Assembly: GCA_946645685.1 (NCBI GenBank) | Contig: CAMPCJ010000002.1 | Coordinates: forward strand, 1 to 63,666 | DNA: 63,666 nt | Direction: 5' to 3' | From: an uncultured Clostridia bacterium | Lineage (GTDB): Bacteria; Bacillota; Clostridia; Oscillospirales; SIG627 | Part shown: in pieces, positions 6,461 through 38,168 of the stretch | Numbering within the stretch: the first letter of the stretch is position 1 | Layout of the letters: each line of letters begins with the position of its first letter | Notes under the pieces: model-generated | Database searches by the model: none | What the model was told of the DNA's origin: nothing | The model's input: the letters and a program-made list of their open reading frames with translations, nothing else | Program-made: the position numbers and the translations under genes

Positions 6461-6494
6461 CATGTTACCATTTTCATAAAATTATGGGAAAGCC

Positions 6495-6523
6495 TTTACA
6501 AAACTCATTTTTTTCAGTAAAAT
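6495..6523 (+). promoter_or_regulatory. Sigma-A type promoter upstream of pyrH
   Basis: TTTACA (6495-6500), 17-nt spacer, TAAAAT (6518-6523). Confidence 0.5.
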
Positions 6524-6580
6524 AATGGATGATAAATCACTTGTATATGATTTGATTTTATACTGTTTGCGGAGGTTCTT

Positions 6581-7294: not shown

Positions 7295-7331
7295 TCCTTC
7301 CATAAATAACATTGAGAAAGGAACAGATAGT

Positions 7332-8605: not shown

Positions 8606-8611
8606 TTGATT

Positions 8612-9448: not shown

Positions 9449-10593
9449 AAAAGCGAGTTTTGGTTTTGGGATCCACCGGATCCGTCGGCCGTCAGGCGCT
9501 GGAAGTCATTGCGGAAAGAGGCTTTGTACTGACCGGCATATCCGCAGATCATAATATTAAAATCCTGGAAGAGCAGATCCGCGCGTTTCACCCGGCATTT
9601 TGCGCCGTTCGTGATGAAAACGCGGCGAAGCTGTTAAAAATTGCCGTCGGTGATACGAATACCACCGTTCTTGCCGGTGAAAGCGGAATTTTAGAAATGT
9701 GCGCGAACTGCCCGGCTGACATTGCCGAGAATTCCATTCTCGGCTCCGCCGGCATCATGCCGACGCTGTATTTGATCCGCCGCGGCGTTGATATTGCCAT
9801 GGCGAACAAAGAACCGATCGTTGCCGCCGGCGAAATCATTTTGGAAGAAGCGCGTAAAAACAACGTTCACATCCTGCCGGTCGACAGCGAACATTCCGCC
9901 GTTTTTCAATGCTTGTCCGGCTCCTTTAATGATAGGCGGTACGTGAAAGAACTGGTACTTACCGCTTCCGGCGGTCCCTTTTTCGGAAAGGACAGAAGCT
10001 TCCTTTCCGGCGTTACACCGGAAATGGCGATCGCCCACCCGGTATGGCATATGGGCAAAAAAATCAGCGTAGATTCTGCGACTTTGATGAATAAGGGTTT
10101 GGAGCTGATCGAAGCTGTGCGCCTGTTTTCCGTCGCGCCGGACAACGTAAAGATCACCGTTCACCGGCAATCGATCGTGCATTCCATGGTTACCTTTGTG
10201 GACGGATCGACGATGGCACAAATGGGTCATCCGGATATGCGCCATTGCGTTCAGTTTGCGCTGACTTGGCCGGAAAGGACTGAAGGAGTGTGCGCTCCCC
10301 TCGACTTTACCGAAGCGCTGAATTTAACGTTTGAGCCCGTCGATGAAGAAACGTTTTCTTTGATCGGCGTCGCCAGGGACGCCGTTCGCCGCGGCGGCAC
10401 TTATACAACTGTTCTGAATGCAGCCAACGAAGCCGCAGTCTCCTTGTTTCTGGATAAAAAAATCGGTTTTTTGGATATATTTGATCTTGTCACAGACGCA
10501 GTCGAAAAACACAACGGTGAACCGGCAGGATCCGTTGAAGATATTTTATCGATTGATTTTGAAACGAAAAGACATATTTTCAGCCGTTTTTGA
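9445..10593 (+). CDS. dxr: 1-deoxy-D-xylulose 5-phosphate reductoisomerase
   Basis: LGSTGSVGRQAL, MANKEPIV, PVDSEHSAVFQC, HPVWHMGKKISVDSATLMNKGLE. Confidence 0.93.
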   Translation: MKKRVLVLGSTGSVGRQALEVIAERGFVLTGISADHNIKILEEQIRAFHPAFCAVRDENAAKLLKIAVGDTNTTVLAGESGILEMCANCPADIAENSILGSAGIMPTLYLIRRGVDIAMANKEPIVAAGEIILEEARKNNVHILPVDSEHSAVFQCLSGSFNDRRYVKELVLTASGGPFFGKDRSFLSGVTPEMAIAHPVWHMGKKISVDSATLMNKGLELIEAVRLFSVAPDNVKITVHRQSIVHSMVTFVDGSTMAQMGHPDMRHCVQFALTWPERTEGVCAPLDFTEALNLTFEPVDEETFSLIGVARDAVRRGGTYTTVLNAANEAAVSLFLDKKIGFLDIFDLVTDAVEKHNGEPAGSVEDILSIDFETKRHIFSRF

Positions 10594-10656
10594 ATGTACT
10601 TTTTTCGGGATGGCAACAATAGTAGTATGGATTAAGTCGGAAAGGCGAACCCTTTT

Positions 10657-11688
10657 ATGCAAACCGTTATTGGCATTTTAGTCGCTGTTTTGGTGTTCGG
10701 GGTCATGATCTTCATTCATGAGTCTGGTCATTATATTGCCGCGCGTCTCTGTAAGGTGAAGGTACTGGAATTCGCAGTCGGTATGGGACCGAAACTGTTT
10801 TCTCGCACCTCCAAAAAAACAGGGATCGTTTATTCTTTGCGCTTATTCCCCATTGGCGGATTTACCTCCATGGAAGGGGAAGACGGTGAAAACCAGGATC
10901 CGCACGCTCTGGTGAACCGTCCGAAGTGGCAGCGGTTTATCGTCTTGTTTGCCGGATCCTTTGCCAATATTCTGACCGGCGTGATCGCCATGTTCGTTTA
11001 TTTGTCCTTGACGATGAACGTTGGCTCCAACATCGTGGCACAATTTAATGAAAACGCCGTTTCCGAACAATACGGCCTTCAGGTCGGAGACGAGATCGTA
11101 CGAATCAACGGTGAAAAAATGATCTCCTATATGGACGTTATGAATAAGATAACGTTGGACGGGACGGAACCTTTGGATCTGACGGTCGTCCGTGGGGGAG
11201 AAACGATCACGCTGGACGACGTTCAGTTTGCCGTAACGGAAGAGGACGGCATTCCTTATGCACAAGTCGATTTTCTGTTTCTCGGTGTCAAGCCGGGATT
11301 CGGCACCTTGATCAAGCAAACGTTTACTCATTCTGTCGCCACTGTCAAGGTGATCTATAAAACCCTTGTTGATTTGATCCGAGGCAGATACGGCATCAAA
11401 GGCGTCAGCGGGCCGGTGGGAACGGTTTCCGTGATTACGGAATCTACGAAATACGGCTTTTCCTCCGTTTTATTTTTGTTTGTGTTCATTTCTCTGAATC
11501 TCGGTGTGATGAACCTGCTTCCCTTGCCCGCGCTGGACGGAGGCCGCATTCTGTTCCTGCTGATCGAAGCAATCCGCCGCAAACCGATCAAGCCGGAAGC
11601 GGAAGGGTACATTCACCTTGCGGGGATGGTCGTTCTGCTTTTGTTTATGGCGGTCATCACCGTTTTCGACGTGATCAAATTGTTTTGA
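10657..11688 (+). CDS. rseP: RIP metalloprotease RseP/YluC (site-2 protease)
   Basis: HESGHY (HExxH) in the first TM segment, central PDZ-like segment, NLLPLPALDGGR motif. Confidence 0.9.
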   Translation: MQTVIGILVAVLVFGVMIFIHESGHYIAARLCKVKVLEFAVGMGPKLFSRTSKKTGIVYSLRLFPIGGFTSMEGEDGENQDPHALVNRPKWQRFIVLFAGSFANILTGVIAMFVYLSLTMNVGSNIVAQFNENAVSEQYGLQVGDEIVRINGEKMISYMDVMNKITLDGTEPLDLTVVRGGETITLDDVQFAVTEEDGIPYAQVDFLFLGVKPGFGTLIKQTFTHSVATVKVIYKTLVDLIRGRYGIKGVSGPVGTVSVITESTKYGFSSVLFLFVFISLNLGVMNLLPLPALDGGRILFLLIEAIRRKPIKPEAEGYIHLAGMVVLLLFMAVITVFDVIKLF

Positions 11689-11701
11689 GAGGAACTCTTT
11701 T

Positions 11702-12781
11702 ATGCGTAAAATGACGAAAAAAGTCAGGATCGGCGATCGCGCGATCGGAGGCGATTCTCCCATTCTGATCCAGTCTATGACCTGCACGCCGACTTCTGAT
11801 TTTGAGGGGACGCTGGGTCAGATCCTGGAGCTGGAAAAAGCGGGGTGCGACATTGCCCGTGTGACGGTGAACAATATGGACGCCGTTAGAAACGTGTATC
11901 GTCTGAAAGAGAATTCTCATATTCCGCTTGTGGCTGACGTTCATTTTGATTATCGCTTTGCCGTGGAGGCGGCGCACGCGGGCATTGATAAGATCCGCAT
12001 AAATCCCGGCAACATCGGAAACAAGAACAACGTAAAAAAAGTCGTTGACGCCTGCAGGGAAAAGAACATACCCATACGGATCGGCGTCAATTCCGGCTCG
12101 GTTGAGCGCAACATCTTATTTGAGTGCAAAGGACCTACCGCCCAAGCCTTGTATTTGAGCGCCATGGCGGAGGTCCGCATTCTTGAGGAGCTGGATTTTA
12201 ATGACATCGTTATCTCTGTCAAATCCAGCGACGTACATACCATGATCGAAGCCAACCGACTGATCTCTCAAGCCTGCGATTATCCGCTGCATCTCGGCGT
12301 AACGGAAGCGGGTTTGCCGGAAAGCGGGATCGTAAAATCCGCCATTGGGATCGGCTCTTTGCTGACCGACGGGATCGGTGATACCATTCGTGTTTCTTTG
12401 ACGACCAGGGATCTGAAACAGGAAGTTATTGCCGCGAAAAAGATTTTGGCTGCCTGCAATTTGCTGGAGCATCACATTGACGTGATCTCTTGTCCTACCT
12501 GCGGCCGCACCCAGGTGGATCTTGTTTCGCTGGCTTCAAAAGTGGAAGAAGAGATCGAAAAGCGTCAGATCCGCCCGAAACGGAATCTGAAGGTAGCCGT
12601 TATGGGCTGCGTTGTCAACGGGCCCGGAGAAGCCACATGGGCGGACGTTGGTATAGCAGGCGGCACGAAGGACGTGCTTCTTTTTACGCACGAGGGCGCT
12701 TCCTTCAAAAAAATTCCCGAAGAAAACGCAGTCGAACGCTTGATGGAAGAGATCGTTCGTCTGTCTGAGGAAGAATCATGA
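11702..12781 (+). CDS. ispG: 4-hydroxy-3-methylbut-2-enyl-diphosphate synthase (flavodoxin)
   Basis: ILIQSMT, RINPGNIG, SCPTCGR, GCVVNGPGE cluster ligands. Confidence 0.93.
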   Translation: MRKMTKKVRIGDRAIGGDSPILIQSMTCTPTSDFEGTLGQILELEKAGCDIARVTVNNMDAVRNVYRLKENSHIPLVADVHFDYRFAVEAAHAGIDKIRINPGNIGNKNNVKKVVDACREKNIPIRIGVNSGSVERNILFECKGPTAQALYLSAMAEVRILEELDFNDIVISVKSSDVHTMIEANRLISQACDYPLHLGVTEAGLPESGIVKSAIGIGSLLTDGIGDTIRVSLTTRDLKQEVIAAKKILAACNLLEHHIDVISCPTCGRTQVDLVSLASKVEEEIEKRQIRPKRNLKVAVMGCVVNGPGEATWADVGIAGGTKDVLLFTHEGASFKKIPEENAVERLMEEIVRLSEEES

Positions 12782-20097: not shown

Positions 20098-20568
20098 TCA
20101 AAGTGTTATCTTTTTGCCGTTGAGATATGCTTCCAATAGATCCTTTCCGTGATAGACAAGCTTCATGGAAAAGAAAGGATGTCCTTCCTCCATCAGATCC
20201 AAAAAGAGATGATCGCCAGCCCAAAGATCTTTTTTTCTCAGTTCTTTTTTATCGATCCAGGCAAGCTCCCCTTCATCGCATTCGGTAATTTCGCCCTCGT
20301 ATCCGTCAGCGTGAAACAAAACCATATGTTCCGTGTAGGTATCGTCCGCAACAAATGATATGATCCCGCAGAGCCGTAAGTCTTTTATCTGAAGACCGGT
20401 TTCTTCGCGAAATTCTCTGGTGATACAGTCTTCCGGGCTTTCGCCTTCCTCAAATTTCCCGCCGATCCCGATCCATTTTTCACGGTTGATATCATTTTCT
20501 TTTTTGATCCGGTGAAGCATCAAATACTTCCCGTCCTGCTCCAGGTAGCATACAGTAGATAAGATCAA
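20098..20568 (-). CDS. NUDIX hydrolase (MutT-like)
   Basis: Nudix box GGKFEEGESPEDCITREFREETGL. Confidence 0.85.
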   Translation of the reverse strand: MILSTVCYLEQDGKYLMLHRIKKENDINREKWIGIGGKFEEGESPEDCITREFREETGLQIKDLRLCGIISFVADDTYTEHMVLFHADGYEGEITECDEGELAWIDKKELRKKDLWAGDHLFLDLMEEGHPFFSMKLVYHGKDLLEAYLNGKKITL

Positions 20569-21386
20569 AAACGTACCTCCCGACGATAGCGATATAAAAA
20601 CGCGTTGATGTGAGACCCGATCAATAGTAAAAAACTGAACAAAAACAGCCAGGATAAAAGGACGATCACGCTGCCCAGGGAGCCGTAAAGGTTGGAAAAA
20701 CCGTTCAATCGATCGACATAAATAGAAAACAGGCGTGACGAGATCAGCATGGCAAATCCGGAAAAAAGGGAACCGGGTATCGTTTCCCGGAGCCGCAGCG
20801 CGGTTGCCGGTAAAACGTAATTGATGCCCATAATGACAAACAAAACAAATATACCGAAAATAATAAGGCGAAAATGCTCCAATAAAACCGAAAAAGCTTG
20901 AAAATGAGGAAAAGCAGATAAAACGTAAGCGATCACTTTTTCACCCGTAACGATCAACAGGAGTGAAGCGATCAGGGAAAACAGAATTAAAATGACGAAC
21001 AAAAGCGATACGCCGAATTCTGAAATGATATTTCCTTTATATTCGGAACGAAAGGCCAAGCGAACTCTCCGCTTTATGACTTCAACCGCCTTTCTGAGGG
21101 ATATGATGGTCAAAAACAGTCCGAAAACGAGCCAAGTGGGGTGAAGGGACATGTCGTTCATATACCCCTCGATCAAGGAAACGGAACGCTCGGGGATCAA
21201 GTAAGATAAAAAGCTTTCTCGGATTATAAACGTTACGGGAAGGGAGGAAAGCAGGGAACTTAAAAACATCAAAAAGGGAAAGAGGGAAAACAGAAGATAA
21301 TAAGAAATGGTAGCGGCGCCTTCAAACAAATGAGCTGCCGCTACCTCTTTGAGCAGCATGAACAACAAATTCTTTTTTTCCTTCAT
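20565..21386 (-). CDS. YihY/BrkB-family membrane protein
   Basis: 273 aa, 6 TM segments, YYLLFSLFPFLMFL N-terminal pattern. 4-nt overlap with the NUDIX gene. Confidence 0.6.
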   Translation of the reverse strand: MKEKKNLLFMLLKEVAAAHLFEGAATISYYLLFSLFPFLMFLSSLLSSLPVTFIIRESFLSYLIPERSVSLIEGYMNDMSLHPTWLVFGLFLTIISLRKAVEVIKRRVRLAFRSEYKGNIISEFGVSLLFVILILFSLIASLLLIVTGEKVIAYVLSAFPHFQAFSVLLEHFRLIIFGIFVLFVIMGINYVLPATALRLRETIPGSLFSGFAMLISSRLFSIYVDRLNGFSNLYGSLGSVIVLLSWLFLFSFLLLIGSHINAFLYRYRREVRF

Positions 21387-21422
21387 CTCTTGAAACTGTC
21401 GAAGTGTTCCGACTCTCCCCGA

Positions 21423-21902
21423 TCACGTTTTGAATAGTTTATGTAAGATCAAGGAAAAATATCGTTTCAAACGAAGAAAAAACCTGCGGCAAGGCAGAAA
21501 AAAGCAATAAACCTTCCCGGAAAAAGAAAAAGGATCGATCGATCTCCCGTCTCTTTCCAAACTGCTGACAATGCCGATCATCAAGTCCCGTGTGACGTTT
21601 CTCTCCAAAATGAATTGGTTATCGCCGCACATGACAAAAGCGGAACCTTTACAGGCAACGACGCGATGCAATACAAACTGCCCGTTCTTTCTGCGATAAA
21701 ACACGATGTCGTGCTTTCGGATCCTTTCGGGCAGGGAATGAAGGACAACCTTGTCTGTTCCGCCGCGAATAAACGGATGCATACTGCTGCCGTTGGCTGT
21801 GAAAGAAACGGTCCCGTCTCGCGCAAGCGTTTCCGATATAACGCCGTAAAGCTCTTGAAATGAAACCGGCGTTTCCGGGTTATTCATCGAGCAAGCCTGC
21901 AT
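21423..21902 (-). CDS. S24/S26-like serine peptidase without N-terminal membrane anchor
   Basis: GSSMHP (the GxSMxP nucleophile motif of the signal-peptidase/LexA clan). VLHRVV resembles the HRV motif of SipW/Sec11-type S26B enzymes. Overlaps the upstream PqqD-like gene by 23 nt. Confidence 0.6.
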   Translation of the reverse strand: MQACSMNNPETPVSFQELYGVISETLARDGTVSFTANGSSMHPFIRGGTDKVVLHSLPERIRKHDIVFYRRKNGQFVLHRVVACKGSAFVMCGDNQFILERNVTRDLMIGIVSSLERDGRSIDPFSFSGKVYCFFLPCRRFFLRLKRYFSLILHKLFKT

Positions 21903-22140
21903 CCTTGAGCTTTGTCAGAAATGCAAAAACGTCTGTTTCGGCAACGTTGGCGTCAACTTGATATTCCCGCAACAACGCTTGTACAAGTTCTTTTTGGTCG
22001 GTGCCTTTCTCAAGTTTTTTCCAAAGCAAAACGCCTGTTTCGTTCAGCGTGATCATTCCGTCGAAATCCACCGCTCCCACGGGCACGACAACGTGATTGG
22101 CTCCGACGTCTCGCAGTAAAAATCCGGATTTGATCTTCAT
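21880..22140 (-). CDS. PqqD-family protein (RiPP recognition element-like)
   Basis: 86 aa. FLLRDVGANHVVVP...ITLNETGVLLWKKLEKGTDQKELVQALLREYQVD...DVFAFLTKLKDAGLL matches the PqqD/RRE winged-helix pattern. Confidence 0.75.
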   Translation of the reverse strand: MKIKSGFLLRDVGANHVVVPVGAVDFDGMITLNETGVLLWKKLEKGTDQKELVQALLREYQVDANVAETDVFAFLTKLKDAGLLDE

Positions 22141-22151
22141 TCAAACACCTC

Positions 22152-23504
22152 TTATTTGGTAAAATCGATCCTGCCGTATTCCCGGATCGAAAGAAAAACG
22201 GCTAAAGCAAGAGAGAGAAGCAGCGTTATGACCGTATAGGTTATGATCGATTTCCACTGGCTTCTTGTGGCGGATGCGGACGGGGCGCTTACGGTGCCGC
22301 TCGCTTCCTGAGCCTTTTTAGCGGTATCCTCGATCAAACTGATCGATTCCTCGACCTTTTGGGAATCATAATCGTTATTCTCAAGTAATTCGACGCCTTT
22401 TTTAACCGCTTTGACCAGCGCGGATTCGTAGTTGGAATGAGGCGTGATATTTTTGTATTTCTCGATCAAGGATTTCAGATATTCGACCCGCTGCACGGTG
22501 ACGAAAGAAGAAAACTTAAGCATCAAATCGTTATTGATCGATCCGATCAGATCCTGCACGTATTCCTTGTATGAAGCAGATGTAACGGATGTAGGAACAT
22601 AAAACAGAATAGGATGGGTTTCCGTCAAATCGTATTTCATCCGTGCTTTACGGATCTTTTCAAACGCTTCCTCGGTATAATCCGTTTCACGCATGTTTTT
22701 GAAGGTAGATACGGTAAGATCCAGTTCGGAAAAGTTAAAATTGGATCGCATAAAATCGTGGTAACTTTTCAAAAGAGCGCTGCCGCTCTTTTGAATGTCC
22801 TCATTCGTTGAATCCGGATCATCCAGAACCGCCCCCGCAGCATTCAGCGCGTTGTAAAAATCTTCACTCCCGACAACATTTGGAATGGAATCCGGGCGAA
22901 TGGAATGCGCTATGATCAAATAAAAAAATGCCAGATCGTCTCTTGTCAGGTTTTCCGGTACCTGAAGGATAAACAGATCCTTAAAAGCGTTTGCCGTCTC
23001 AAGTTCAAGGGCATCGATTTTGGATTGAATGTAAGAAATGTATTCCTCGCGACTCATATTATTGATCAAGTACACCTGGGGATGTTCATACAGATCGACG
23101 CATTTATCAACTTCTGTCAGAAACACGCTTAGATCCTCTTCTTCATATAGTCCGCTCTTCAAATAGGGAACGAGGGAAGCCAGAAAAGAAATTCCGCTGT
23201 AATCGTAGGTATTTCGCAGCAAAAACAAATAAGAAGCCCGCAGTTCATTATAGGCGTTTTCCAACTGGATATCCGATGCGTTAGGATCTGCACAAACCGC
23301 TTTTGTCTTCAAGAGATTACGAACGTAGTCTGCGTATCCGGTCACGTTTTGATACACGGACGGATAAATAACGGTTTCAAGGCTATCGCACTTATCCTTC
23401 ACAAAGCTGCGCGTGATCTTCTCTTCGGCACAAACGGGGAGCAAGGCCATAAAGACAAAAGCCAACGCTAAAAAAATGCTGCATAAGCGGCGTAAAACGT
23501 TCAT
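22152..23504 (-). CDS. Hypothetical bitopic surface protein with helical FIVAR-like repeats
   Basis: N-terminal signal/anchor MNVLRRLCSIFLALAFVFMALLPVCAEE and C-terminal TM ITYTVITLLLSLALAVFLSI. Repeated helical segments such as DYTEEAFEKIRKA. The ATG at 23504 overlaps the rsmA stop (ATGA). Confidence 0.5.
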   Translation of the reverse strand: MNVLRRLCSIFLALAFVFMALLPVCAEEKITRSFVKDKCDSLETVIYPSVYQNVTGYADYVRNLLKTKAVCADPNASDIQLENAYNELRASYLFLLRNTYDYSGISFLASLVPYLKSGLYEEEDLSVFLTEVDKCVDLYEHPQVYLINNMSREEYISYIQSKIDALELETANAFKDLFILQVPENLTRDDLAFFYLIIAHSIRPDSIPNVVGSEDFYNALNAAGAVLDDPDSTNEDIQKSGSALLKSYHDFMRSNFNFSELDLTVSTFKNMRETDYTEEAFEKIRKARMKYDLTETHPILFYVPTSVTSASYKEYVQDLIGSINNDLMLKFSSFVTVQRVEYLKSLIEKYKNITPHSNYESALVKAVKKGVELLENNDYDSQKVEESISLIEDTAKKAQEASGTVSAPSASATRSQWKSIITYTVITLLLSLALAVFLSIREYGRIDFTK

Positions 23505-24385
23505 AGGATACCTCCCAATGAATGAATATGATCGGATAAAGTGCAAAACTCTTGAAGGGAAAGGGTTTCCCCTCTGCGATTCGGCTCAATACCGCTATTC
23601 TCAAGAACGAACAAGATCTGCTCCTTTGACAAAGAGGGGAATGATATAGAAAGAGCATTGGAAAGCGTCTTGCGCCTTGCGGAAAAAGCCGCTTTAATAA
23701 CTGAAAAGAACAAAGGAACTGATTTTGGCTGAACAGGTCTCTTTTCGCGGATGAACATTCTTAAAACGGCGGAATCCACCTTCGGCCGGGGAATAAAGTT
23801 TCCCGGACCGACCCGAAACAGCTTTTCCGTTTCGGCGTAAAAGGATACCGCCGCCGTTATGGATCCATATTGCGGCGTCCCGGGAAGCGCTGTCAGACGA
23901 TCAGCCGCCTCCTGCTGGATCAAAACCGTTACGCTCCGCAGATCAATTTTGCTTTCCAGCAGCGTCATAAGCATTTCACTGGTAAGATAATAGGGAAGAT
24001 TAGCGCAAACGGCAACAGCGTAAGACGGATAAGTTTCACGTATGGCGGAAAAGGGATACTTCAAAGCGTCACAGCACTCCACAGTCACGTTTTTTGCATC
24101 AGCAAGGGAAACAGACAGAACGGGGATGAGATGAGGATCGATCTCAAGCGCTAAAACGTGATCAAAGAGTTTAGAGAGCTGCAGGGTGAGCGATCCCGCT
24201 CCCGGACCGATCTCAATGGCGAGGGTAGGCACGTCCTGGGGTAAGGTATCACGCGAGGCTTGCGCGATCCGGCGGGAAACGGACTCGTTCATCAAAAAAT
24301 TCTGACCGAGCTTCTTTTTGAAATAAAACCCGTTCTCCTCCAGTAAACGCGCCATATCGGAGCTTTTGTATATATTGATCGCCAT
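23501..24385 (-). CDS. rsmA: 16S rRNA (adenine1518/1519-N6)-dimethyltransferase
   Basis: KKLGQNFL, EIGPGAGSLT, ANLPYY. GAGG sits 6 nt before the ATG at 24385. The ORF-track start 24397 is a TTG. Confidence 0.9.
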   Translation of the reverse strand: MAINIYKSSDMARLLEENGFYFKKKLGQNFLMNESVSRRIAQASRDTLPQDVPTLAIEIGPGAGSLTLQLSKLFDHVLALEIDPHLIPVLSVSLADAKNVTVECCDALKYPFSAIRETYPSYAVAVCANLPYYLTSEMLMTLLESKIDLRSVTVLIQQEAADRLTALPGTPQYGSITAAVSFYAETEKLFRVGPGNFIPRPKVDSAVLRMFIREKRPVQPKSVPLFFSVIKAAFSARRKTLSNALSISFPSLSKEQILFVLENSGIEPNRRGETLSLQEFCTLSDHIHSLGGIL

Positions 24386-26808: not shown

Positions 26809-27174
26809 TTACACCGATCGCGTTTTCTCATTGTTTAACCCTAAACTGATCACAATGGCGGAATTGATCCGATCCATGATGCCCGCATCAAAATGCCCCA
26901 TCTTTTCCCGAAGGCGTTTCTTATCAATGGTGCGTACCTGCTCCAGCAATACAACGGAGTTCCGATTTAATCCGCTTTCGTCGGCAATGACTTCAATGTG
27001 CGTCGGTAGGCGCGCCTTATTCATTTTGCTGGTGATCGCCGCGGCAATAACGGTCGGACTATGTTTATTGCCTACGTCGTTTTGTACGATCACCACAGGT
27101 CGTAAGCCGCCTTGCTCCGATCCCACGACCGGACTCAGATCCGCATAAAAAATGTCTCCTCGTTTGATCGTCAC
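26809..27174 (-). CDS. mazF: Type II toxin MazF/EndoA (PemK family mRNA interferase)
   Basis: [60 protein letters not shown]...[13 protein letters not shown] is collinear with B. subtilis EndoA. A GTG start at 27174 has AAGAGGGG 6 nt upstream. The ORF-track ATG at 27204 has no RBS. Confidence 0.88.
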
Positions 27175-27211
27175 ATATAACCCCTCTTTACACGATTTAT
27201 ACATTTATTCT

Positions 27212-27289: not shown

Positions 27290-27784
27290 TCACCGGATCG
27301 TTATGGACAGATCGTCTTTTGTTACAACGATGGAATCGATCCTTTTATCTTCGTTTAATCTGAATTTCATTTCAATTCCGTGATCGGACGCGACCCATTC
27401 TTCCGAATCTTTGTTTTCTTTTCGACGGGTCGCGGCTTTGAATACGTCGTTTTGTTCCATCCAAAGAAATGTATTCCTTAGAAGTGACATTGGATTTGTT
27501 AAACCGTTTTGCGCAAATTTTATTCCGCTAAATTCGCTTTCATACCCTTCCTCCGAAACCGATTCTTTCAGACCATAGAGCGGTGTGTTTTCATCTGTAC
27601 ACGCTAAACTGAACGCTGTCGGAGAAGAGTAGAGCAGCGTTTCCGTAAAGGTGTTTCCGCCCATGCAGATCACAACCTTGTGTTCCCCTATCATTTGTTC
27701 TGAGGATAAGCGGGCATTCGCTTTTCCGCAGGAAAACAAACTGAAAACAGTCAAAAAAATCAGGACTCTCGCAACGATTTTCAT
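27290..27784 (-). CDS. Hypothetical lipoprotein
   Basis: MKIVARVLIFLTVFSLFSCGK (lipobox LFSC). GAGGTGA RBS before the ATG at 27784. The upstream part of the 220-aa track ORF was rejected. Confidence 0.6.
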   Translation of the reverse strand: MKIVARVLIFLTVFSLFSCGKANARLSSEQMIGEHKVVICMGGNTFTETLLYSSPTAFSLACTDENTPLYGLKESVSEEGYESEFSGIKFAQNGLTNPMSLLRNTFLWMEQNDVFKAATRRKENKDSEEWVASDHGIEMKFRLNEDKRIDSIVVTKDDLSITIR

Positions 27785-29287: not shown

Positions 29288-29331
29288 AAAAAAGGGCTCG
29301 TCAAAATAACACTTTGACGAGTCCCTTTTTT
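29288..29331. terminator. Bidirectional terminator between the DUF4956 gene and the helicase gene
   Basis: AAAAAAGGGCTCGTCAAA...TTTGACGAGTCCCTTTTTT has a 13-bp stem with one bulge, flanked by A and T tracts. Confidence 0.8.
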
Positions 29332-29347: not shown

Positions 29348-31537
29348 TTACGTTAAAAGGGCGATGCGCCGCATGGCGTCCGCCGTATCCAGGTTATTAA
29401 GAGCATAGGCGCGAACAAGGAGATCCTGCGGAAGCATGGCGTCAAATTTATCGATGATCGGATATTCCGTTTTGCCGACCAGATCGATCCCATTCAAGAG
29501 TTTCAATTCACCGAATGCCTTCAAAACGCTTTTCGCGTCGGCTTTGTCCGACCGGAATGTGATATAATAACAACCACCGCTCTGAATATCCCGAAGGGAA
29601 AGGGCAGGGGCTAATTTGTGCTGAACGACCCGCTTGATCGCATCAAATCCGCGCGTTCCAAGCCACGGAAAGAATACGAAGCTGGACCCGCCGAGTGACA
29701 GGATACTCGTTTGGGTCATACCGGTATTCGCCGCTAAACGACGCGCTTTGACAAGCCGTTCTTTTGCCTTGGGAAGCAAATATGGATACTCTTCTTCGCT
29801 ATCAAGGACCTCTCTCATTTTTTCAAGGATGCGTGTATGAATGGCGCCTTGAGATCCCGGCCAGGAGATCTTCATCTTTCCATCCACACTTTTCGCATAG
29901 ACCAGCCTTCGCGGAACGTCGATCTCTTCCACTTCCCATACTCTGCCTGCAAGGGCAAAGCGTTCCCCGACGGGAGGCGTCGCGGATATGGTTCCGATCT
30001 CCTCGGAGCCGCTTCTTACCGTAAAATCCTCGCTGTCTTTGAAAACGGCGTAAAACTTGAAGCTGGAGAGAAGACGTTCTCCTTTGACGCCGATCATCAC
30101 TTCGTTTCGGTCGGTCTTTTCCAGATATTCCCGGCGGATCATATGGATCAGCAATTCTTTATAATCTGTGCTTTCCACATAGCGAAAGGGCGGGAACGAC
30201 AAAATCTCACGAGCAAGAGCAGCGGGGGAAAGACTTCCGTGAGAAGCGACGAGGGAAAGCGTTTGGTGAAACAATAAACTGGCGGGCAGAGCTTTGATAT
30301 TGGCAGGCTCGATCCATCGTTCTTTTCGATATAATTCAATAATGGCGATCGCCTGAACGAGTTCCCAGGGGATCACTTGATATAAGGGCGCGTTAGGAAG
30401 CGCTTCTTCTTCCCGGAACACCATAACCATTTCCGGACTTTCGCCGCGCCTGCCGCTTCTTCCGATCCTTTGCAGAAACCCCGAAACGGAAGTCGGACTG
30501 CCTTGATTGATGATGCGTTTCAATCTGCCCACGTCGATCCCAAGCTCTAAGGTGACCGTGGCGCAGGTGGTGACCGGGCGTGAATCATTTTTCAATTTAT
30601 CTTCCGCATCCTCCCGAATGGAAGCGGAAAGATTTCCGTGATGGATCAGAAAGCGGTCGTCTTCATGCAAACGTTTGGCGAGAAGACGCAGGGAAGCGGT
30701 GACCTCCTCTGTTTCCTCCCGTGAATTGGAGAACACGATGCATTTGTCGCCTTTGGTCGCACGGTAAATGAATTCCGTTGCCGGATCGATCCCTTTCACA
30801 CCGGAAGGCTCGGTGGTATAAAAATGCGCAACGCCTAATTTCCAGCCTACATTGCCCGCGGGAAGCTGAATAGGATCCGTAACGCGCTCCGATCCCGCTC
30901 CAAACCATTCGGACGCGCTTTTACAATCGCCGATGGTCGCGGACAGGGCGATCCGCCTCGGCTGCCTGCCGATCAAGCGCGCAATTCTCTGCAGCTGACA
31001 TAATACCTGCGACCCGCGATCGGATCCCATCAAAGCGTGGATCTCGTCGACGATGACGAATTGTAACTGTCCAAATAAGCGGGGGATATCGTTGGAACGG
31101 CGCACCAGCATACTTTCCAAAGATTCCGGCGTGATTTGCAGCAATCCGGCCGGATTTTTTAAAAAAGCGTTTTTATGGCTTTGAGACGCGTCTCCATGCC
31201 ATTTCGTCACCGGGATGCCGGATTCCGCCAATAATTCTTCCATACGCGTAAATTGATCGTTGATCAGCGCTTTCAAGGGAGAAATGTAAAGCGTCAGACA
31301 GTTTTCAGCGCCCATTTCATCGGTAATGGATAGAATGGGAAACATTGCCGCCTCAGTTTTCCCGGAAGCAGTTTCAGAGGATATGAGAAGATTATGATCC
31401 GTGTGAAACAAAATATCGGCGGCTTCCACCTGGACGCGTCGCAATTCGTTCCAACCGGATCGATAGATATAATCGCGGATAAAGGGGGAAAAACGAGAAA
31501 ATGTCCTCTTCGCGCGTTCAGTCAGGTCATCCATCAT
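29348..31537 (-). CDS. Lhr-like DExH-box helicase, third gene of the TerB/ATPase/helicase operon (Shango SngC-like)
   Basis: 729 aa. Motif I SETASGKTEAA, motif II VIVDEIHAL, motif III LSATIGD, HHGNLS, motif VI QRIGRSGRR. The C-terminal half resembles Lhr-core WH/beta-barrel (GERFALAGRVWEVEEID). ATGA overlap with the upstream ATPase gene. Confidence 0.8.
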   Translation of the reverse strand: MMDDLTERAKRTFSRFSPFIRDYIYRSGWNELRRVQVEAADILFHTDHNLLISSETASGKTEAAMFPILSITDEMGAENCLTLYISPLKALINDQFTRMEELLAESGIPVTKWHGDASQSHKNAFLKNPAGLLQITPESLESMLVRRSNDIPRLFGQLQFVIVDEIHALMGSDRGSQVLCQLQRIARLIGRQPRRIALSATIGDCKSASEWFGAGSERVTDPIQLPAGNVGWKLGVAHFYTTEPSGVKGIDPATEFIYRATKGDKCIVFSNSREETEEVTASLRLLAKRLHEDDRFLIHHGNLSASIREDAEDKLKNDSRPVTTCATVTLELGIDVGRLKRIINQGSPTSVSGFLQRIGRSGRRGESPEMVMVFREEEALPNAPLYQVIPWELVQAIAIIELYRKERWIEPANIKALPASLLFHQTLSLVASHGSLSPAALAREILSFPPFRYVESTDYKELLIHMIRREYLEKTDRNEVMIGVKGERLLSSFKFYAVFKDSEDFTVRSGSEEIGTISATPPVGERFALAGRVWEVEEIDVPRRLVYAKSVDGKMKISWPGSQGAIHTRILEKMREVLDSEEEYPYLLPKAKERLVKARRLAANTGMTQTSILSLGGSSFVFFPWLGTRGFDAIKRVVQHKLAPALSLRDIQSGGCYYITFRSDKADAKSVLKAFGELKLLNGIDLVGKTEYPIIDKFDAMLPQDLLVRAYALNNLDTADAMRRIALLT

Positions 31538-32868
31538 AAATCGATCTCACTTAAATCAAACAATTCATCAAATTCGTCGTCTTTTTGTTGAAGCGGCTTT
31601 TCCTCTGGCTCAGACTCAAGTAATTTCTCAAAGCTCGCTTCCGGATCGGAATAGGTAACGTCCAAAAGATTGATAAAATCTCTGGTGATCTCGCGGGGGG
31701 TGATCATTTCCTGCGCGCCCACTCTCCCCAGCGAAACTTTTAAAAACAGAGCAATCTCATCGTCGGTGACTCGGATCTCATATCGATAGTAGGAACTGTG
31801 CAAAAGAGCGAGGCGTTTGCATAGGGCAAATAATTCGTTATCGGTCAATCGAACAAGGCGGATCAAGGGCGATAACAGATTTTGATTCTCATAAGAAATA
31901 AATCTGCCGGGTGCCAATCTGCTCTTTAAGGCTTCATAACTGAACAAGCCACGGCGCGGATCCTCCACCATCTGTGGGGTCGCTCCCATGATCACGCCGA
32001 GACCTTCCGCTTTCCCCTGCATGGTATCATTAAAGATGGAAAGGATCTTTTCGTAATTATTCTCCCGGGAAACACGGTTCGGGATCTTATACAGGTTGAC
32101 CAATTCATCAAATAGGATCAAGAATCCGCTGTACCCGATGGCACGAAAAAATACGGCGTATAATTTCAAAAATTCAAACCAGTTTTGATCACTGATCACT
32201 GAATTCAGTTTTACTCTGGAATTCCTTGCCTGAACTTTACCTTCAAATTCTCCCCTCAACCAGCGAAGCGCGTCCTCTCGCAGCTCGTCGTCACCGGAAA
32301 CTGTTCCTTCATAAAAGCAGTGAAGCGCTTTTGCAAAATCAAACCCGCCTGCGTAGGAGCGGCACAGGTCAGACACGGCAAAGATTTGCCGCGTCACATA
32401 AGAGGTCAGTTCTTTTGTTTCCGGCGCAATGCCCTCCCGGGTAATTCCCTCGGTTTGTAATCCGTTGAACCAGTTTTCCAGAATAGAAGACAAGGCGTTT
32501 CCGTCCGGCATGGCTTTGGTCGAAAGATGCTGCATCAAATCGCGAAAAGTGCCAAGACCTTGTCCGTGAGTCCCTTGAAATCGTCTTTCGGGAGTCAGAT
32601 CGGTATCCGCCGTGACAAATCCCCGCTCCTGCGCATTTCCTCTGATCAAGCCCATTAAAAAGCTCTTGCCGCTCCCGTATTTACCGACGATCAATCGGAA
32701 AGCGCCCATACCTTCTTTGATGTTATCCAGATCGCGGGTAAGCGCGGCGATCTCCTTTTCTCTGCCGATGGCAATATACTCGAGCCCATGACGGGGAACA
32801 ACGCCGGAGCCGGCGCTGTTGAGCAGATTTCCCAGAATTCGCTTGGGTACCTTTATTGCATCTTTCAT
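31534..32868 (-). CDS. DUF2791 / BrxC-BrxD-like P-loop ATPase (Shango SngB-like)
   Basis: 444 aa. N-terminal GREKEIAALTRDLDNI, then Walker A VGKYGSGKSF, Walker B FLILFDELVNL, acidic tail. GGAAGGAG RBS lies inside the 3' end of the upstream gene. Confidence 0.75.
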   Translation of the reverse strand: MKDAIKVPKRILGNLLNSAGSGVVPRHGLEYIAIGREKEIAALTRDLDNIKEGMGAFRLIVGKYGSGKSFLMGLIRGNAQERGFVTADTDLTPERRFQGTHGQGLGTFRDLMQHLSTKAMPDGNALSSILENWFNGLQTEGITREGIAPETKELTSYVTRQIFAVSDLCRSYAGGFDFAKALHCFYEGTVSGDDELREDALRWLRGEFEGKVQARNSRVKLNSVISDQNWFEFLKLYAVFFRAIGYSGFLILFDELVNLYKIPNRVSRENNYEKILSIFNDTMQGKAEGLGVIMGATPQMVEDPRRGLFSYEALKSRLAPGRFISYENQNLLSPLIRLVRLTDNELFALCKRLALLHSSYYRYEIRVTDDEIALFLKVSLGRVGAQEMITPREITRDFINLLDVTYSDPEASFEKLLESEPEEKPLQQKDDEFDELFDLSEIDL

Positions 32869-32871
32869 CGT

Positions 32872-34458
32872 TTACACTCCTTCCCGAGGCGGAAAGACTT
32901 CCTTTAATTCACTTGTGTAGTCATCGTAAACACTGCCCGCAGCATCCAGCACGGCGTCTCCGGTCGTTTCAACGGCTTTTTCATTTAAAGAGGCAACGAA
33001 GGCGTCAAAAAACTGACCGATCGACCTGACGTATAAACGCGCTTCATCCGCTCCTTGGTAAAGGATGACGGACATGAACAGATCTTCCTGGTCGGACAGG
33101 GAAGCGGCAAACTCCAGGAAGGGGTTCTCTTTGCTCTCGATTTGAGAAGGTTGATTGTCACCGATTGCTTTTTTTATATCAACGTCGTATCGGCGATCAA
33201 AATCCTCATCGACTGTTTCCCCGATGGAGATCCAATCTCCCTTGTCCTGATAGATCTCCGTAAGCTTTTGCGTGATCGCCCAGGAATTCTCTTCGATCTC
33301 TCCGGCTTTCTGAGGATCGAAAACGAGAGCACGCGGCGGATCCGGCTTTTCTTCTCGAACAGGTGCCGCCACGTTTTTGATCGGCTCGAAAGCCTCAAAC
33401 GGCTTTAATACTTCATCCAGAAAAGATTTATGAACGGGCGTGACTGCAACCTGGCTCAGCCGGTTTTTCAAATGCAGAATAGATCGAATGCGATTGTCCA
33501 CGTAACGGACAACGGCGTCCAGCCGATCCCGGATCACGTCATTGCCGAGTAACGGAACGTATACCAAACAAATCTCAACCTGCGGCGCGTACTCACGGGG
33601 TAAATCGGAAAACAAGGGACGTATGGAACGAAGCTGCGCGGGGATCTGCAAATCAAACAAGCAAGCGTTTGTTTCCTTCTTGTTATAAATACCGGCTTTT
33701 ACGGCTTTTTGAAGCGCCTCTTCACACATTGCGGCATATTGCTTGTTCAATTTGTACGCCCGGCTTTTTCGGAAGGATAGGGAAGTGGTATTCCGTAAAA
33801 TAAATTCCGCTTCATCCTTTGTCAAAGGCTTTTCGTCGGCAAATAAATAATCAAACAAATAAGTCTGATACAGGAAAGGATGGACAGGCGACGTACCGCG
33901 GCAAAGGAAAGGAGAGAGTTTTTCATAATCCGGCTTTGTTTTTCGAAGAAAGCACCAATCGCTGTAAACGTCGCAAAAGAGCTTTTCCGCAGCGGGAAAA
34001 TCCGTACGATAAAGATCCCACAGATCAAAAAACAAATCAGGAATGGGATCCTTCCCAGCTTCCGCAAGGATGAAACAAACGGCAAGCTTGATGTATGCAA
34101 AAGATGCCTGCGGCTTCTTGTTTTCTTTTATCTGTTCGAGAAAATAAATGAAATACGAACGCTGATCGGGAGAAAGGGTCAAATAGGTCGGCATATACAG
34201 GTCGCACGGGACGAATTTTGTTTCCCCGGCGGCGGGAAGCGAGGGGAAAACGAAGGATTCTCTTCCCGAATGCAGCGCGTAATGACAGATCACACGGCTG
34301 CAAGTCGGATAATGGATCTCGCCAAAACGGTTTTCTCTCTGATTGGCGCCTTCGGAAAGAAGAGACAATTTGGCGCCTTGATTAGCAGCGGTTTGGAAAG
34401 ATGAAACGCGCACGCGAGGTAAAAGCTTATCTACAGACCAGTATTCATCCTTTTCCAC
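32872..34458 (-). CDS. TerB-N / TerB-C domain protein (Shango SngA-like)
   Basis: TerB-N-like block FVPCDLYMPTYLTLSPDQRSYFIYFLEQIKENKKPQASFAYIKLAVCFILAE. TerB-C-like tail FMSVILYQ...FFDAFVASLNEKAVETTGDAVLD. A GTG start at 34458 has AGGAGG 8 nt upstream. The track start 34467 abuts the RBS. Confidence 0.7.
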   Translation of the reverse strand: MEKDEYWSVDKLLPRVRVSSFQTAANQGAKLSLLSEGANQRENRFGEIHYPTCSRVICHYALHSGRESFVFPSLPAAGETKFVPCDLYMPTYLTLSPDQRSYFIYFLEQIKENKKPQASFAYIKLAVCFILAEAGKDPIPDLFFDLWDLYRTDFPAAEKLFCDVYSDWCFLRKTKPDYEKLSPFLCRGTSPVHPFLYQTYLFDYLFADEKPLTKDEAEFILRNTTSLSFRKSRAYKLNKQYAAMCEEALQKAVKAGIYNKKETNACLFDLQIPAQLRSIRPLFSDLPREYAPQVEICLVYVPLLGNDVIRDRLDAVVRYVDNRIRSILHLKNRLSQVAVTPVHKSFLDEVLKPFEAFEPIKNVAAPVREEKPDPPRALVFDPQKAGEIEENSWAITQKLTEIYQDKGDWISIGETVDEDFDRRYDVDIKKAIGDNQPSQIESKENPFLEFAASLSDQEDLFMSVILYQGADEARLYVRSIGQFFDAFVASLNEKAVETTGDAVLDAAGSVYDDYTSELKEVFPPREGV

Positions 34459-34491
34459 ACGTTTCACCTCCTACTTTTTATCTTTCCCATT

Positions 34492-34521
34492 ATTATATCA
34501 CCTCCAACAGATGATTGGCAA
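34492..34521 (-). promoter_or_regulatory. Sigma-A type promoter (extended -10) for the three-gene operon
   Basis: On the minus strand: TTGCCA (34521-34516), 18-nt spacer, TGaTATAAT (-10 at 34497-34492). Confidence 0.55.
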
Positions 34522-34573: not shown

Positions 34574-34602
34574 TTGACAAACCCATTCATCTATGATAGG
34601 AT
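34574..34602 (+). promoter_or_regulatory. Sigma-A type promoter for the tRNA-Thr/tRNA-Tyr pair
   Basis: TTGACA (34574-34579), 17-nt spacer, TGaTAGGAT (-10 at 34597-34602), 22 nt before the tRNA 5' end. Confidence 0.55.
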
Positions 34603-34624: not shown

Positions 34625-34700
34625 GCTGGTGTAGCTCAATTGGCAGAGCAGCTGATTTGTAATCAGCAGGTTGGGGGTTCGATTCCCTTCACCAGCTCCA
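34625..34700 (+). tRNA. tRNA-Thr (anticodon UGU), CCA encoded
   Basis: Acceptor GCTGGTG/CACCAGC. D arm TAGCTCAATTGGCAGAGCA. Anticodon arm GCTGA-TTTGTAA-TCAGC. T arm GGGGG-TTCGATT-CCCTT. 76 nt. Close to the B. subtilis tRNA-Thr(UGU) layout. Confidence 0.9.
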
Positions 34701-34718
34701 GGCACTGAATACTTATAT

Positions 34719-34803
34719 GGGGGAATTCCCGAGCGGCCAAAGGGGGCAGACTGTAAATCTGTTGTCACTGACTTCGGTGGTCCGAATCCACCTTCCCCCA
34801 CCA
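34719..34803 (+). tRNA. tRNA-Tyr (anticodon GUA), type II long variable arm, CCA encoded
   Basis: Acceptor GGGGGAA/TTCCCCC. CCCGAGCGGCCAAAGGG D arm. GCAGA-CTGTAAA-TCTGT anticodon arm. Variable arm TGTCACTGACTTC. T arm GGTGG-TCCGAAT-CCACC. Collinear with E. coli tRNA-Tyr. Confidence 0.88.
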
Positions 34804-34833: not shown

Positions 34834-34914
34834 AAATAAGTGTACAGCAAAACGATAAAAGTGGAAAGCGAAGAAGACGCATAAAGGCTTTTGCCATATC
34901 GGGAGATTTTGCAT

Positions 34915-35328
34915 ATGATCATATTAGGAATAGATTTCGGCGACAAACGAATGGGGCTTGCCGTGTGTGATGAAAAACAGACGATGGCTGTCAGCATTCG
35001 CACGGAACAAGTTCGCGGCGCAAAGGATGCTGCTGAAAAAGCGGCGAAATGCGCCGAAGAGCGAAACGCAGCCAAGATCGTCGTGGGAATGCCGGAAAGA
35101 GCGGACGGTTACAAAGGGGAAAGATGTGAGAAAACAGAGTTTTTTCTTTCTTTTCTCAGAGAACTTGTCTCCATTCCCGTGGAAACGTTTGATGAAAGGT
35201 TCACAACCGTTGAAGCCCATGACCTGCTGTATGAAGCAGGTAAGAAAGGGAGGAGCCACGTAAGCATTGTTGACGCGCTTTCCGCTCAGTTGATCCTTCA
35301 GGGATACCTGGATCAGCACAAGCAATAG
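34915..35328 (+). CDS. ruvX: Holliday junction resolvase-like RuvX (YqgF)
   Basis: MIILGIDFGDKRMGLAVCD...VVGMP...DERFTTVEA. Confidence 0.85.
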   Translation: MIILGIDFGDKRMGLAVCDEKQTMAVSIRTEQVRGAKDAAEKAAKCAEERNAAKIVVGMPERADGYKGERCEKTEFFLSFLRELVSIPVETFDERFTTVEAHDLLYEAGKKGRSHVSIVDALSAQLILQGYLDQHKQ

Positions 35329-37356: not shown

Positions 37357-37384
37357 GACAAAGAAAAAACCGGTGTGGTATGAT
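37355..37384 (+). promoter_or_regulatory. Sigma-A type promoter (extended -10) for the sirtuin gene
   Basis: TTGACA (37355-37360), 18-nt spacer, TGgTATGAT (-10 at 37379-37384). The -35 overlaps the glmS terminator 3' arm. Confidence 0.55.
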
Positions 37385-37400
37385 CGCAAAAGAACAAAGG

Positions 37401-38168
37401 ATGGTGATAAAGGTGTCTGAATTTAAAGACCGTGAGATCCGACTGTTTCGCTCCTTTCTTGAAACTTCAAAAAACGCCGTCTTTTTCGGCGGTGCAGGCG
37501 TGTCCACGGAAAGCGGCGTACCGGATTTCAGAAGTAAGGACGGTTTGTATAATCAAAGGGACATCCGTTTTGATTCTTATGCGCCGGAATATCTGCTCAG
37601 CCACGAGTGTTTGACGCTTCATCCAAACGTATTCTTTGAATTCTACCGACAAAAGATGGATACCCGCTCCATCGAGCCGAACGAAGCGCATTACGCCCTG
37701 GCGCGATTGGAAAAGGATGGAAAGCTTTCCGCCGTCATCACGCAGAATATCGACGGGCTCCATCAAAAAGCCGGCAGTGAAACCGTTTATGAGATCCACG
37801 GAAGCACAAAAAGAAACTATTGTACCCGATGTCTGAAAGCCTATTCGGCAGATTACATCTTTGAGTCAAAGGAAGAGATCCCACGCTGCACTTGTGGCGG
37901 CTTGATCCGATGCGACGTGACTTTATACGGGGAATCCTTGCCGGAAAAGGCGGTTGAGGGCGCTGTAAACGCGATACAAAAAGCAGATCTTTTGATCATT
38001 GGAGGAACTTCTCTTACCGTCTATCCCGCAGCATCCTTTATCCGATATTTCGGCGGAGACCACCTTGTGGTGATCAACCGCGAACCGCTGAACATCCATC
38101 TCAGAGAGGAACAGGATCTCTTTATTCAAGGTTCGATCGGCGCTTTTTTCAAAGTTGCTTTAAAATAA
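37401..38168 (+). CDS. cobB: NAD-dependent protein deacylase (Sir2 family)
   Basis: FFGGAGVSTESGVPDFRS, TQNIDGLH, IHGS, zinc ribbon CTRC...CTCGG. The start is 37401 (or GTG 37413), because the promoter -10 covers the track start 37380. Confidence 0.85.
   Translation: MVIKVSEFKDREIRLFRSFLETSKNAVFFGGAGVSTESGVPDFRSKDGLYNQRDIRFDSYAPEYLLSHECLTLHPNVFFEFYRQKMDTRSIEPNEAHYALARLEKDGKLSAVITQNIDGLHQKAGSETVYEIHGSTKRNYCTRCLKAYSADYIFESKEEIPRCTCGGLIRCDVTLYGESLPEKAVEGAVNAIQKADLLIIGGTSLTVYPAASFIRYFGGDHLVVINREPLNIHLREEQDLFIQGSIGAFFKVALK

Follow-up and report, generated by a model that had tools for sequence, protein, structure and literature searches.

A predicted Shango operon at a conserved chromosomal site in uncultured gut and rumen Clostridia

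The Shango system acts against phages, is made of a TerB protein, an ATPase and a helicase, and was described in Escherichia coli (Millman et al. 2022, bioRxiv 10.1101/2022.05.11.491447) and found independently in Pseudomonas aeruginosa PA14, where it lowers the efficiency of plating 10-100-fold and protects strongly in liquid culture (Johnson et al. 2023, PMC10250203). Both papers credit the earlier idea that Ter-associated domains act in defence to Anantharaman et al. 2012. Surveys detect Shango in <20% of Clostridium perfringens isolates, and it is listed among the systems that DefenseFinder identified in rumen metagenome-assembled genomes (MAGs). Here we analyzed a stretch of 63,666 nucleotides of contig CAMPCJ010000002.1 (GCA_946645685.1) from an uncultured Clostridia bacterium, hereafter called the window, to which all coordinates refer unless another locus is named. 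The window carries three consecutive minus-strand genes that almost certainly form a complete and intact Shango homologue, sngA-sngB-sngC (Table 1). Its host belongs to a clade of uncultured gut and rumen Clostridia (Eubacteriales, Oscillospiraceae-like). Taken as a whole, the data are best explained by an intact, vertically inherited Shango operon acting in defence, an explanation that we regard as probable.

The initial annotation of this DNA had proposed a Shango-type composition for the three genes, and this proposal stands. Three long open reading frames (ORFs) were found on the minus strand, both in a mechanical ORF list and in the sequence itself, and their content and layout are those by which Shango is defined, SngA, SngB and SngC being adjacent and co-oriented. 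The PADLOC models for SngA, SngB and SngC matched the three products at 5e-19, 4.3e-157 and 1.2e-231, respectively, and for SngB and SngC the Sng models scored 2-3 times higher than those of their BREX paralogues. The gene boundaries proposed earlier also held. The mechanical list puts the start of sngA at GTG 34467, a codon that overlaps the AGGAGG Shine-Dalgarno sequence, whereas GTG 34458 lies 8 nt downstream of AGGAGG and is aligned with the ATG at which the gene starts in six syntenic relatives. Because GTG 34458 fits both the Shine-Dalgarno spacing and the starts of the relatives, sngA was defined as 32872-34458, encoding 528 residues. The sngA and sngB genes are separated by a 3-nt gap (TAA-ACG-ATG) and sngB and sngC by none, since their stop and start codons overlap (ATGA); both junctions, read in the sequence as previously reported, suggest that the sng genes are translationally coupled. 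Each motif quoted by the initial annotation (FVPCDLYMPTYL..., FVASLNEKAVETTGDAVLD, HHGNLS, and the Walker A, Walker B and helicase motifs I, II and VI of Table 1) is present once.

The match of SngC to its PADLOC model extends over profile positions 4-714 of 720 (769 bits), against 4.7e-128 (426 bits) for BrxHI, and Pfam recognizes DEAD (5e-28) and Helicase_C (5.8e-18). In addition to the conserved motifs of Table 1, SAT is present twice, the copy that corresponds to helicase motif III being residues 199-201, and motif III is invariant in the same 35 homologues. Among solved proteins, YprA/MrfA and Lhr are its closest relatives by sequence. The AlphaFold2 (AF2) model of SngC (predicted local distance difference test, pLDDT, 85; predicted template modelling score, pTM, 0.84) has as its best Foldseek match the Lhr core of Mycobacterium smegmatis, 5v9x, over the full length (query TM-score, TMq, 0.71; E 2.6e-28), followed by MrfA 6znp (TMq 0.58). 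The description of the third gene as an Lhr-like helicase with an Lhr-core-like C-terminal half is borne out by this overlay on 5v9x, despite an insignificant match to Pfam WH_Lhr. We also considered SngC as an Lhr helicase associated with a metallophosphoesterase (MPE) or a ligase, or as a MrfA/YprA helicase with DUF1998, and rejected both assignments on scores far below the cutoffs and on missing partners. TIGR04121 (ligase-associated Lhr) gave 209.6 bits against a cutoff of 850; no Pfam match to DUF1998 was found in SngC and no MrfB-type exonuclease among the neighbours, and no ligase or MPE phosphoesterase adjoins the operon among the flanking genes.

SngB matches Pfam PF10923 BrxC_BrxD (formerly DUF2791) end to end at 3.7e-139, which confirms the family given to the second gene in the initial annotation. 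The PADLOC SngB match covers profile positions 4-433 of 439 (522 bits), against 8.4e-44 (148 bits) for BrxD, and a search by sequence found no solved relative. Residues G62, Y64, G65, G67 and K68 of Walker A and D254 and E255 of Walker B are invariant in 12 homologues, one being a BREX-type BrxD. The protein ends in an acidic tail whose termination in D/E-L-x-x-I-x-L is kept in Clostridia homologues, and which we regard as a candidate docking peptide between subunits. Full-length matches to BrxD (8e-44) and BrxHI (5e-128) raise the alternative that a type 2 BREX/Pgl system has left the operon behind as an orphan remnant, in which a BrxD-BrxHI pair stayed beside an unrelated upstream gene after loss of PglZ, PglX, PglW and PglY. 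One of 25 related loci, L032 from a Rickettsiales MAG (6045-12127), has just such a neighbour, PglZ standing directly upstream of a BrxD-like ATPase and a BrxHI-like helicase, at the position of SngA; this is the layout of type 2 BREX, and it shows the BrxD-BrxHI pair to be a module common to type 2 BREX and Shango. However, the Sng models score far above the Brx models, the triad with an SngA-family upstream gene is kept in the other 24 of the 25 loci, and in the window only 3 nt separate this gene from sngB. Moreover PglZ, PglX, PglW and PglY were not found nearby and the triad is kept as a unit across dozens of species, so that a BREX remnant is very improbable.

SngA required more scrutiny. 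Its PADLOC match (67 bits) aligns residues 82-521 to profile positions 99-526 of 528, the first ~80 residues falling outside the model. TerB_N and TerB_C are Pfam families separate from TerB. Against membership in them stand the Pfam scores of the protein itself, 25.4 bits for TerB_C, below the 26.3 gathering cutoff, and 21.8 bits for TerB_N against a cutoff of 25, spanning just 60 residues; nor did SngA match any NCBIfam model. Among its positional homologues in the 25 related loci, 24 match SngA, 22 TerB_N and 20 TerB_C (best E 4.9e-30). Since its own Pfam scores are sub-threshold, we assign SngA to the family on the strength of the SngA model and of the TerB_N and TerB_C matches of its relatives, and the TerB-N/TerB-C architecture first read into this gene is upheld to that extent and not by the direct Pfam scores. 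PF05099 TerB gave no match at E <= 0.1 in the window SngA and none at E <= 0.01 in the 25 positional homologues; a domain review tabulates Shango with PF05099 TerB (PMC10952713). The SngA model built from validated proteins aligns to the window protein over 428 of 528 positions, which argues for a shared architecture. An exhaustive phmmer search returned 413 representative-level homologues that have residues ~75-525 in common.

The AF2 model of SngA is confident (mean pLDDT 87), and Foldseek found no significant match to it in the PDB or among the BFVD viral structures (best E 0.96 and 0.19, respectively), and a sequence-profile search of the PDB likewise came back empty; the TerB_N/TerB_C fold is thus without a solved representative. 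Near the N-terminus, D4, F6, W7 and P14 of a D-x-F-W motif are nearly invariant in an alignment of 74 family members, and this motif is another candidate docking peptide between subunits. Identity of SngA among syntenic relatives is 37-44%, as compared with 64-71% for SngB and 54-79% for SngC. By these figures SngA is the fastest-diverging subunit, at about twice the rate of SngB and SngC, and the asymmetry marks it as a candidate specificity determinant.

We consider it rather likely that the operon works in phage or mobile genetic element defence in its host. SngA, SngB and SngC would then form a single ATP-driven complex in the cytoplasm, directed against the DNA of invading phages, with SngA as the sensor or specificity subunit, the BrxD-type SngB as a nucleotide-dependent switch or loader and SngC as the effector motor. 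By analogy with Lhr, SngC would translocate 3' to 5' on single-stranded DNA and would disrupt phage replication or recombination intermediates, or pass them to host nucleases. Because no nuclease, toxin or membrane domain was detected in any subunit, DNA remodelling or recruitment of host nucleases would be likelier than cell suicide. Millman et al. proposed membrane surveillance by the TerB-like subunit; for the window operon this was set aside as a direct reading since SngA, SngB and SngC contain no transmembrane segment, although a peripheral membrane association is possible.

Table 1. Features of the Shango locus and its immediate surroundings in the window.
Feature	Position	Strand	Basis or remark
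sngA, 528-aa soluble TerB_N/TerB_C-family protein	32872..34458	-	PADLOC SngA model, Pfam, homologues
SngA N-terminal motif EKDEYWSVDKLLP (consensus D-x-F-W...L-x-P), aa 2-14	34417..34455	-	family alignment
sngB, 444-aa BrxC_BrxD (DUF2791) P-loop ATPase	31534..32868	-	PADLOC, Pfam
SngB Walker A VGKYGSGKSF, aa 61-70	32659..32688	-	motif location
SngB Walker B LILFDELVNL, aa 250-259	32092..32121	-	motif location
SngB acidic C-terminal tail FDELFDLSEIDL, aa 433-444	31537..31572	-	motif location
sngC, 729-aa Lhr-like superfamily 2 (SF2) DExH helicase (RecA1, RecA2, winged helix, domain 4)	29348..31537	-	PADLOC, Pfam, model
SngC motif I SETASGKTEAA, aa 54-64	31346..31378	-	T56-A63 invariant in 35 homologues
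SngC motif II DEIH, aa 164-167	31037..31048	-	D164, E165, H167 invariant in 35 homologues
SngC motif VI QRIGRSGRR, aa 356-364	30446..30472	-	Q356, R357, G359-R364 invariant in 35 homologues
sngA Shine-Dalgarno AGGAGG	34467..34472	-	sequence read; AAAGGAG-like element kept in relatives
Operon promoter, sigma-70-type: TTGCCA, 18-nt spacer, TG-extended TATAAT	34492..34521	-	consensus scan
Intrinsic terminator: bidirectional hairpin and T-runs	29294..29324	-	11-12-pair stem, begins 24 nt past sngC stop
tRNA-Thr(UGU) + tRNA-Tyr(GUA)	34625..34803	+	divergent from operon
RuvX	34891..35328		flanking gene

The signals around the three genes predict that sngA, sngB and sngC are transcribed as one operon, from a single strong promoter to a single terminator. 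The promoter pointed out by the initial annotation was read in the sequence in every element, and in a consensus scan of 7 kb (28.5-35.5 kb) it was the top site, with 11 of 12 matches plus the TG. Its extended -10 element (TGgTATAAT) is invariant in 7 syntenic relatives, in which the Shine-Dalgarno sequence and the position of the start are also kept, and the promoter looks constitutive. The terminator hairpin is common to the operon and to the convergent DUF4956 gene. Back to back with the Shango promoter lies the divergent promoter of the tRNA-Thr/tRNA-Tyr pair (TTGACA-17-TG-TAGGAT, 34574-34602, plus strand), the -35 TTGACA of which is invariant in all seven aligned relatives.

We then compared the site across the clade. 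Beyond sngC the flank encodes KsgA, SpoIVA, a radical-SAM-activase-like ORF, a MazF homologue, a lipoprotein, VTC and DUF4956, and beyond sngA the tRNA pair is accompanied by RuvX, GlmS, a CobB-type Sir2 deacylase and a short-chain dehydrogenase/reductase (SDR). A SpoIVA metagenome scan gave distant relatives only (42-46% identity), and homologues of the adjoining DUF4956 protein were used instead for the empty-site test, in which nine contigs were picked without regard to Shango, plus locus L002. The operon was found at the same site in 7 of the 9 syntenic relatives: in L044, L045, L046, L047, L048, L052 and L002 (59-76% DUF4956 identity), SngC-SngB-SngA come directly after DUF4956 in the same orientation. 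The tRNA-Thr/tRNA-Tyr pair lies next to sngA in L002-L004, L045-L048 and L052, and the L044 contig stops inside the operon. In the remaining two, L049 and L053, the block from KsgA to DUF4956 is intact and is followed by unrelated genes, Shango and the tRNA pair being absent within 10 kb; these we read as synteny breaks and not as clean deletions, the absence being established at the site. DUF4956 homologues at 46-47% identity showed no synteny. Heuristic matching of two hit lists suggests at least 20 further co-occurrences of DUF4956 and SngC.

The proteins of the operon have diverged together with their surroundings. L044 is 69% identical to the window in SpoIVA, 68% in KsgA, 79% in SngC and 77% in SngB, and the corresponding figures for L002 are 56%, 58%, 67% and 68%, with 39% for SngA. 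When all pairs were compared, identity correlated with that of the core flank at r = 0.88 for SngB, r = 0.87 for SngA and r = 0.35 for SngC. The weak SngC correlation arises because SngC of L052 is only 54-58% identical to all others. This divergent L052 gene (10834-13014) stands beside an SngB (67-78%) and flanks that fit the clade, and probably the helicase gene alone was exchanged there for a more distant allele. L001, a second metagenome scaffold, matches the window over 16.2 kb at 99.8% identity (33 substitutions) and has an intact operon, and its SngC differs from that of the window by 7 synonymous and 1 nonsynonymous changes. The GC content shows no discontinuity at the operon. As judged from these alignments, the operon is inherited vertically in this clade, at a chromosomal locus that is near-fixed, and is not an accessory island. 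According to the initial annotation it lay in an accessory stretch, next to other conflict genes; this was not borne out, the flanks consisting of conserved core-type genes and tRNAs. A defence island or accessory hotspot was ruled out by the recurrence of the same operon in 7/9 syntenic relatives and the lack of an adjoining defence system. The sole conflict-like neighbour is the MazF homologue, itself syntenically conserved; the Sir2 gene (37380-38168), examined as a possible defence neighbour, was rejected as a CobB-type deacylase (293 bits against a cutoff of 221).

Several observations weigh against an operon that acts in defence. Shango occupies the same place in most of the syntenic relatives, SngB and SngC are conserved as much as SpoIVA and KsgA or more, and a PADLOC scan of the ten neighbours found no defence system among them; such a core-like, fixed-site pattern is atypical of defence genes and also fits a housekeeping role in DNA transactions. 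To these are added the sub-threshold Pfam scores of SngA and the sensor/loader/motor division of labour set out above, which is one that we infer and hold only tentatively. Furthermore a September 2025 preprint calls the protection by TerB-domain defence proteins mechanistically unclear, and the literature on Firmicutes Shango yields no experimental work. In this last respect the initial annotation was right to call a Clostridia version unstudied; it was not for occurrence, as surveys report Shango in C. perfringens and rumen MAGs and a plasmid of cultured Clostridium estertheticum has the triad.

The same observations would be expected of a domesticated genome-maintenance module, in which an Lhr-like repair helicase, an ATPase and an adaptor would serve the cell's own stalled forks, R-loops or DNA damage. 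Such a module would account for a vertically inherited locus fixed beside essential tRNAs and core genes in 7/9 syntenic relatives, for SngB and SngA distances that track the core flank, for SngB and SngC conservation at least at the level of SpoIVA and KsgA, and for a kept, constitutive-looking promoter with no surrounding defence island, and it would agree with the nearest solved homologues being the DNA-repair helicases Lhr and MrfA. The initial annotation had named universal conservation with housekeeping synteny as pointing to an Lhr repair role, and what we found comes partway to this, the operon being at the site in 7/9 syntenic relatives and missing from it in 2/9. These two relatives without the operon speak against a housekeeping function, as do the better fit of the Shango models (TIGR04121 reaching only 210 bits of the required 850) and the lack of a ligase, MPE nuclease or MrfB-type partner. 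In addition, close homologues are found next to transposases on plasmids and in many other contexts, SngA evolves fast, as expected for an arms-race component, and this architecture has been shown by experiment to act against phages in two species. We consider a housekeeping module unlikely and retain a Shango operon acting in defence as the preferred reading.

More widely, a SngC scan of one genome per GTDB species recovered about 30 loci at 52-68% identity, in gut and rumen MAGs of uncultured Eubacteriales, Clostridia, Oscillospiraceae, Ruminococcus and Lachnospiraceae, plus one Caldisericota MAG. Wherever the contig reaches, a SngB homologue and a SngA-family gene of 510-630 residues lie directly upstream of SngC, except in L032. 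About 25 other Clostridia MAG loci have no flanking gene in common with the window. SngB homologues were also found on 695 plasmid records, of which 542 are predicted conjugative; these plasmids are mostly from Klebsiella or Salmonella, with Paenibacillus, Bacillus and C. estertheticum also represented. On the C. estertheticum plasmid pCF002-344 the triad sits between a relaxase gene and IS110 transposases. Searches of phage GenBank records and of IMG/VR contigs returned no SngB homologue, and a prophage origin was dropped on this ground. The plasmid records bear on a further alternative, that this Shango homologue is aimed mainly at conjugative plasmids or integrative elements and not at lytic phages. 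Lhr-like 3'-5' translocases would meet the single-stranded DNA of an incoming conjugative element, Shango's effect on phages is reported to be modest (10-100-fold), and the high proportion of conjugative plasmids among the carriers (542/695) could reflect competition between plasmids. The validated phenotype of Shango is nevertheless anti-phage, and we judge a mainly anti-plasmid role to be improbable. A Shango operon acting in phage defence remains the reading that we favour.

The scan of related loci also led to the identification of additional genes next to the triad. An ORF of ~250 residues follows sngC in six Clostridia loci (L006 12256-13023, L007 6220-6975, L009 12208-12963, L018 2624-3403, L021 12229-12978 and L022 12237-12983), in the orientation of sngC and either overlapping it or spaced a few to 30 nt from it, which suggests a four-gene Shango variant in these six loci. 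Those that were scanned (L006, L009 and L021) are class-I S-adenosylmethionine (SAM) methyltransferases (Methyltransf_25/11); the window operon has no fourth gene. In five loci of another subclade an ORF of ~730-750 residues lies directly after sngC (L010 7996-10239, L011 12344-14542, L016 12341-14530, L027 9222-11462 and L028 12359-14554). The scanned ones (L010, L011, L016 and L027) are fusions of a GT4 glycosyltransferase with a polysaccharide pyruvyl transferase, and could serve sugar or small-molecule modification or could mark mere capsule-locus neighbourhood. L011 also has a GNAT acetyltransferase ORF (8633-9271) between sngB and sngC. On pCF002-344 (locus L054) a gene for an 848-residue protein with an ATP-binding cassette (ABC) domain (9578-12124) lies 17 nt downstream of the triad, and this ABC-ATPase may be another fourth-gene variant.

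Other features of the surroundings were recorded as well. The MazF/PemK-family toxin homologue (26809-27204, minus strand; Pfam 1.3e-34) is 72-87% identical through the syntenic clade. The ORF upstream of it (27290-27784, minus strand; ~165-178 residues) is lipoprotein-like, with a signal peptide and a lipobox, and cannot be recognised as an antitoxin, and none was identified beside the MazF homologue. Upstream of KsgA, 20098-23546 (minus strand) encodes NUDIX and BrkB proteins, a signal-peptidase-like ORF of 159 residues, PqqD and an ORF of ~450 residues without a Pfam match. This cluster, which resembles a peptide-maturation locus, has conserved equivalents in L044-L053, and most relatives have in it a ScmC-family gene that is present neither in the window nor in L001. 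At the Shango position of L049 (12404-20693) we found a split GH77 gene, after which come five tandem ORFs of ~490-510 residues without a Pfam match, possibly a paralogous array.

The window copy is of an already known Shango kind with no new component, and PADLOC or DefenseFinder would already annotate such an operon. Its unusual trait, as seen in the synteny comparison, is that a whole clade inherits Shango at one chromosomal spot and not in a variable defence island. It is conceivable, although we think it doubtful, that in this clade Shango has become a lasting core function, inherited vertically and bound to the tRNA-Thr/tRNA-Tyr locus, with purifying selection on SngB and SngC equal in strength to that on sporulation and ribosome-biogenesis genes and with SngA diversifying. 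If so, Shango would have been domesticated for genome maintenance or would provide a durable 'core immunity' with the arms race confined to the sensor, and the clade would offer a natural comparative dataset for locating the sensing surface of Shango. As the system is validated against phages and its mechanism unexplained, well-characterised homologues have some value. The window operon adds a compact, nuclease-free and membrane-free Clostridia version with confident models of SngA and SngC, and shows that a single chromosomal site can retain Shango across many species. It is modestly interesting for its fixation throughout the clade next to a tRNA pair, for the faster evolution of SngA and for the recurrent fourth genes of its relatives.

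Among known systems, Bunzi and Dionysus have a Ter-family-labelled component in common with the window operon, but they have membrane or pore-forming partners and transmembrane segments, whereas its three proteins are soluble. The Lhr core (5v9x) and MrfA (6znp) share the SF2 DExH motifs with SngC, and the Lhr core overlays it across four domains; SngC is nevertheless only ~20% identical to them, is without the Lhr C-terminal extension or the DUF1998 zinc domain, and is coupled to SngA and SngB instead of a ligase, MPE or MrfB. Type 2 BREX/Pgl is related through BrxD and BrxHI, full-length homologues of SngB and SngC, and differs in its PglZ, PglX, PglW and PglY, in the place of which the window operon has SngA. 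The Shango systems of E. coli and P. aeruginosa PA14 match the window operon in their three components and in the order of these. The PA14 system lies in a hotspot flanked by core genes and the window copy likewise adjoins tRNA and core genes; the window site, however, is not a variable hotspot, since across the clade it holds Shango alone and is vertically inherited. The window operon further departs from the E. coli and PA14 systems in its uncultured Clostridia host and in its very divergent SngA. In C. estertheticum, pCF002-344 (NZ_CP086238.1) carries the triad in the order of the window, its genes being annotated as TerB N-terminal domain protein, ATP-binding protein and DEAD/DEAH helicase, with an SngB 48.5% identical to that of the window; there the triad is found on a plasmid in a mobile context, whereas in the window it is chromosomal and fixed.

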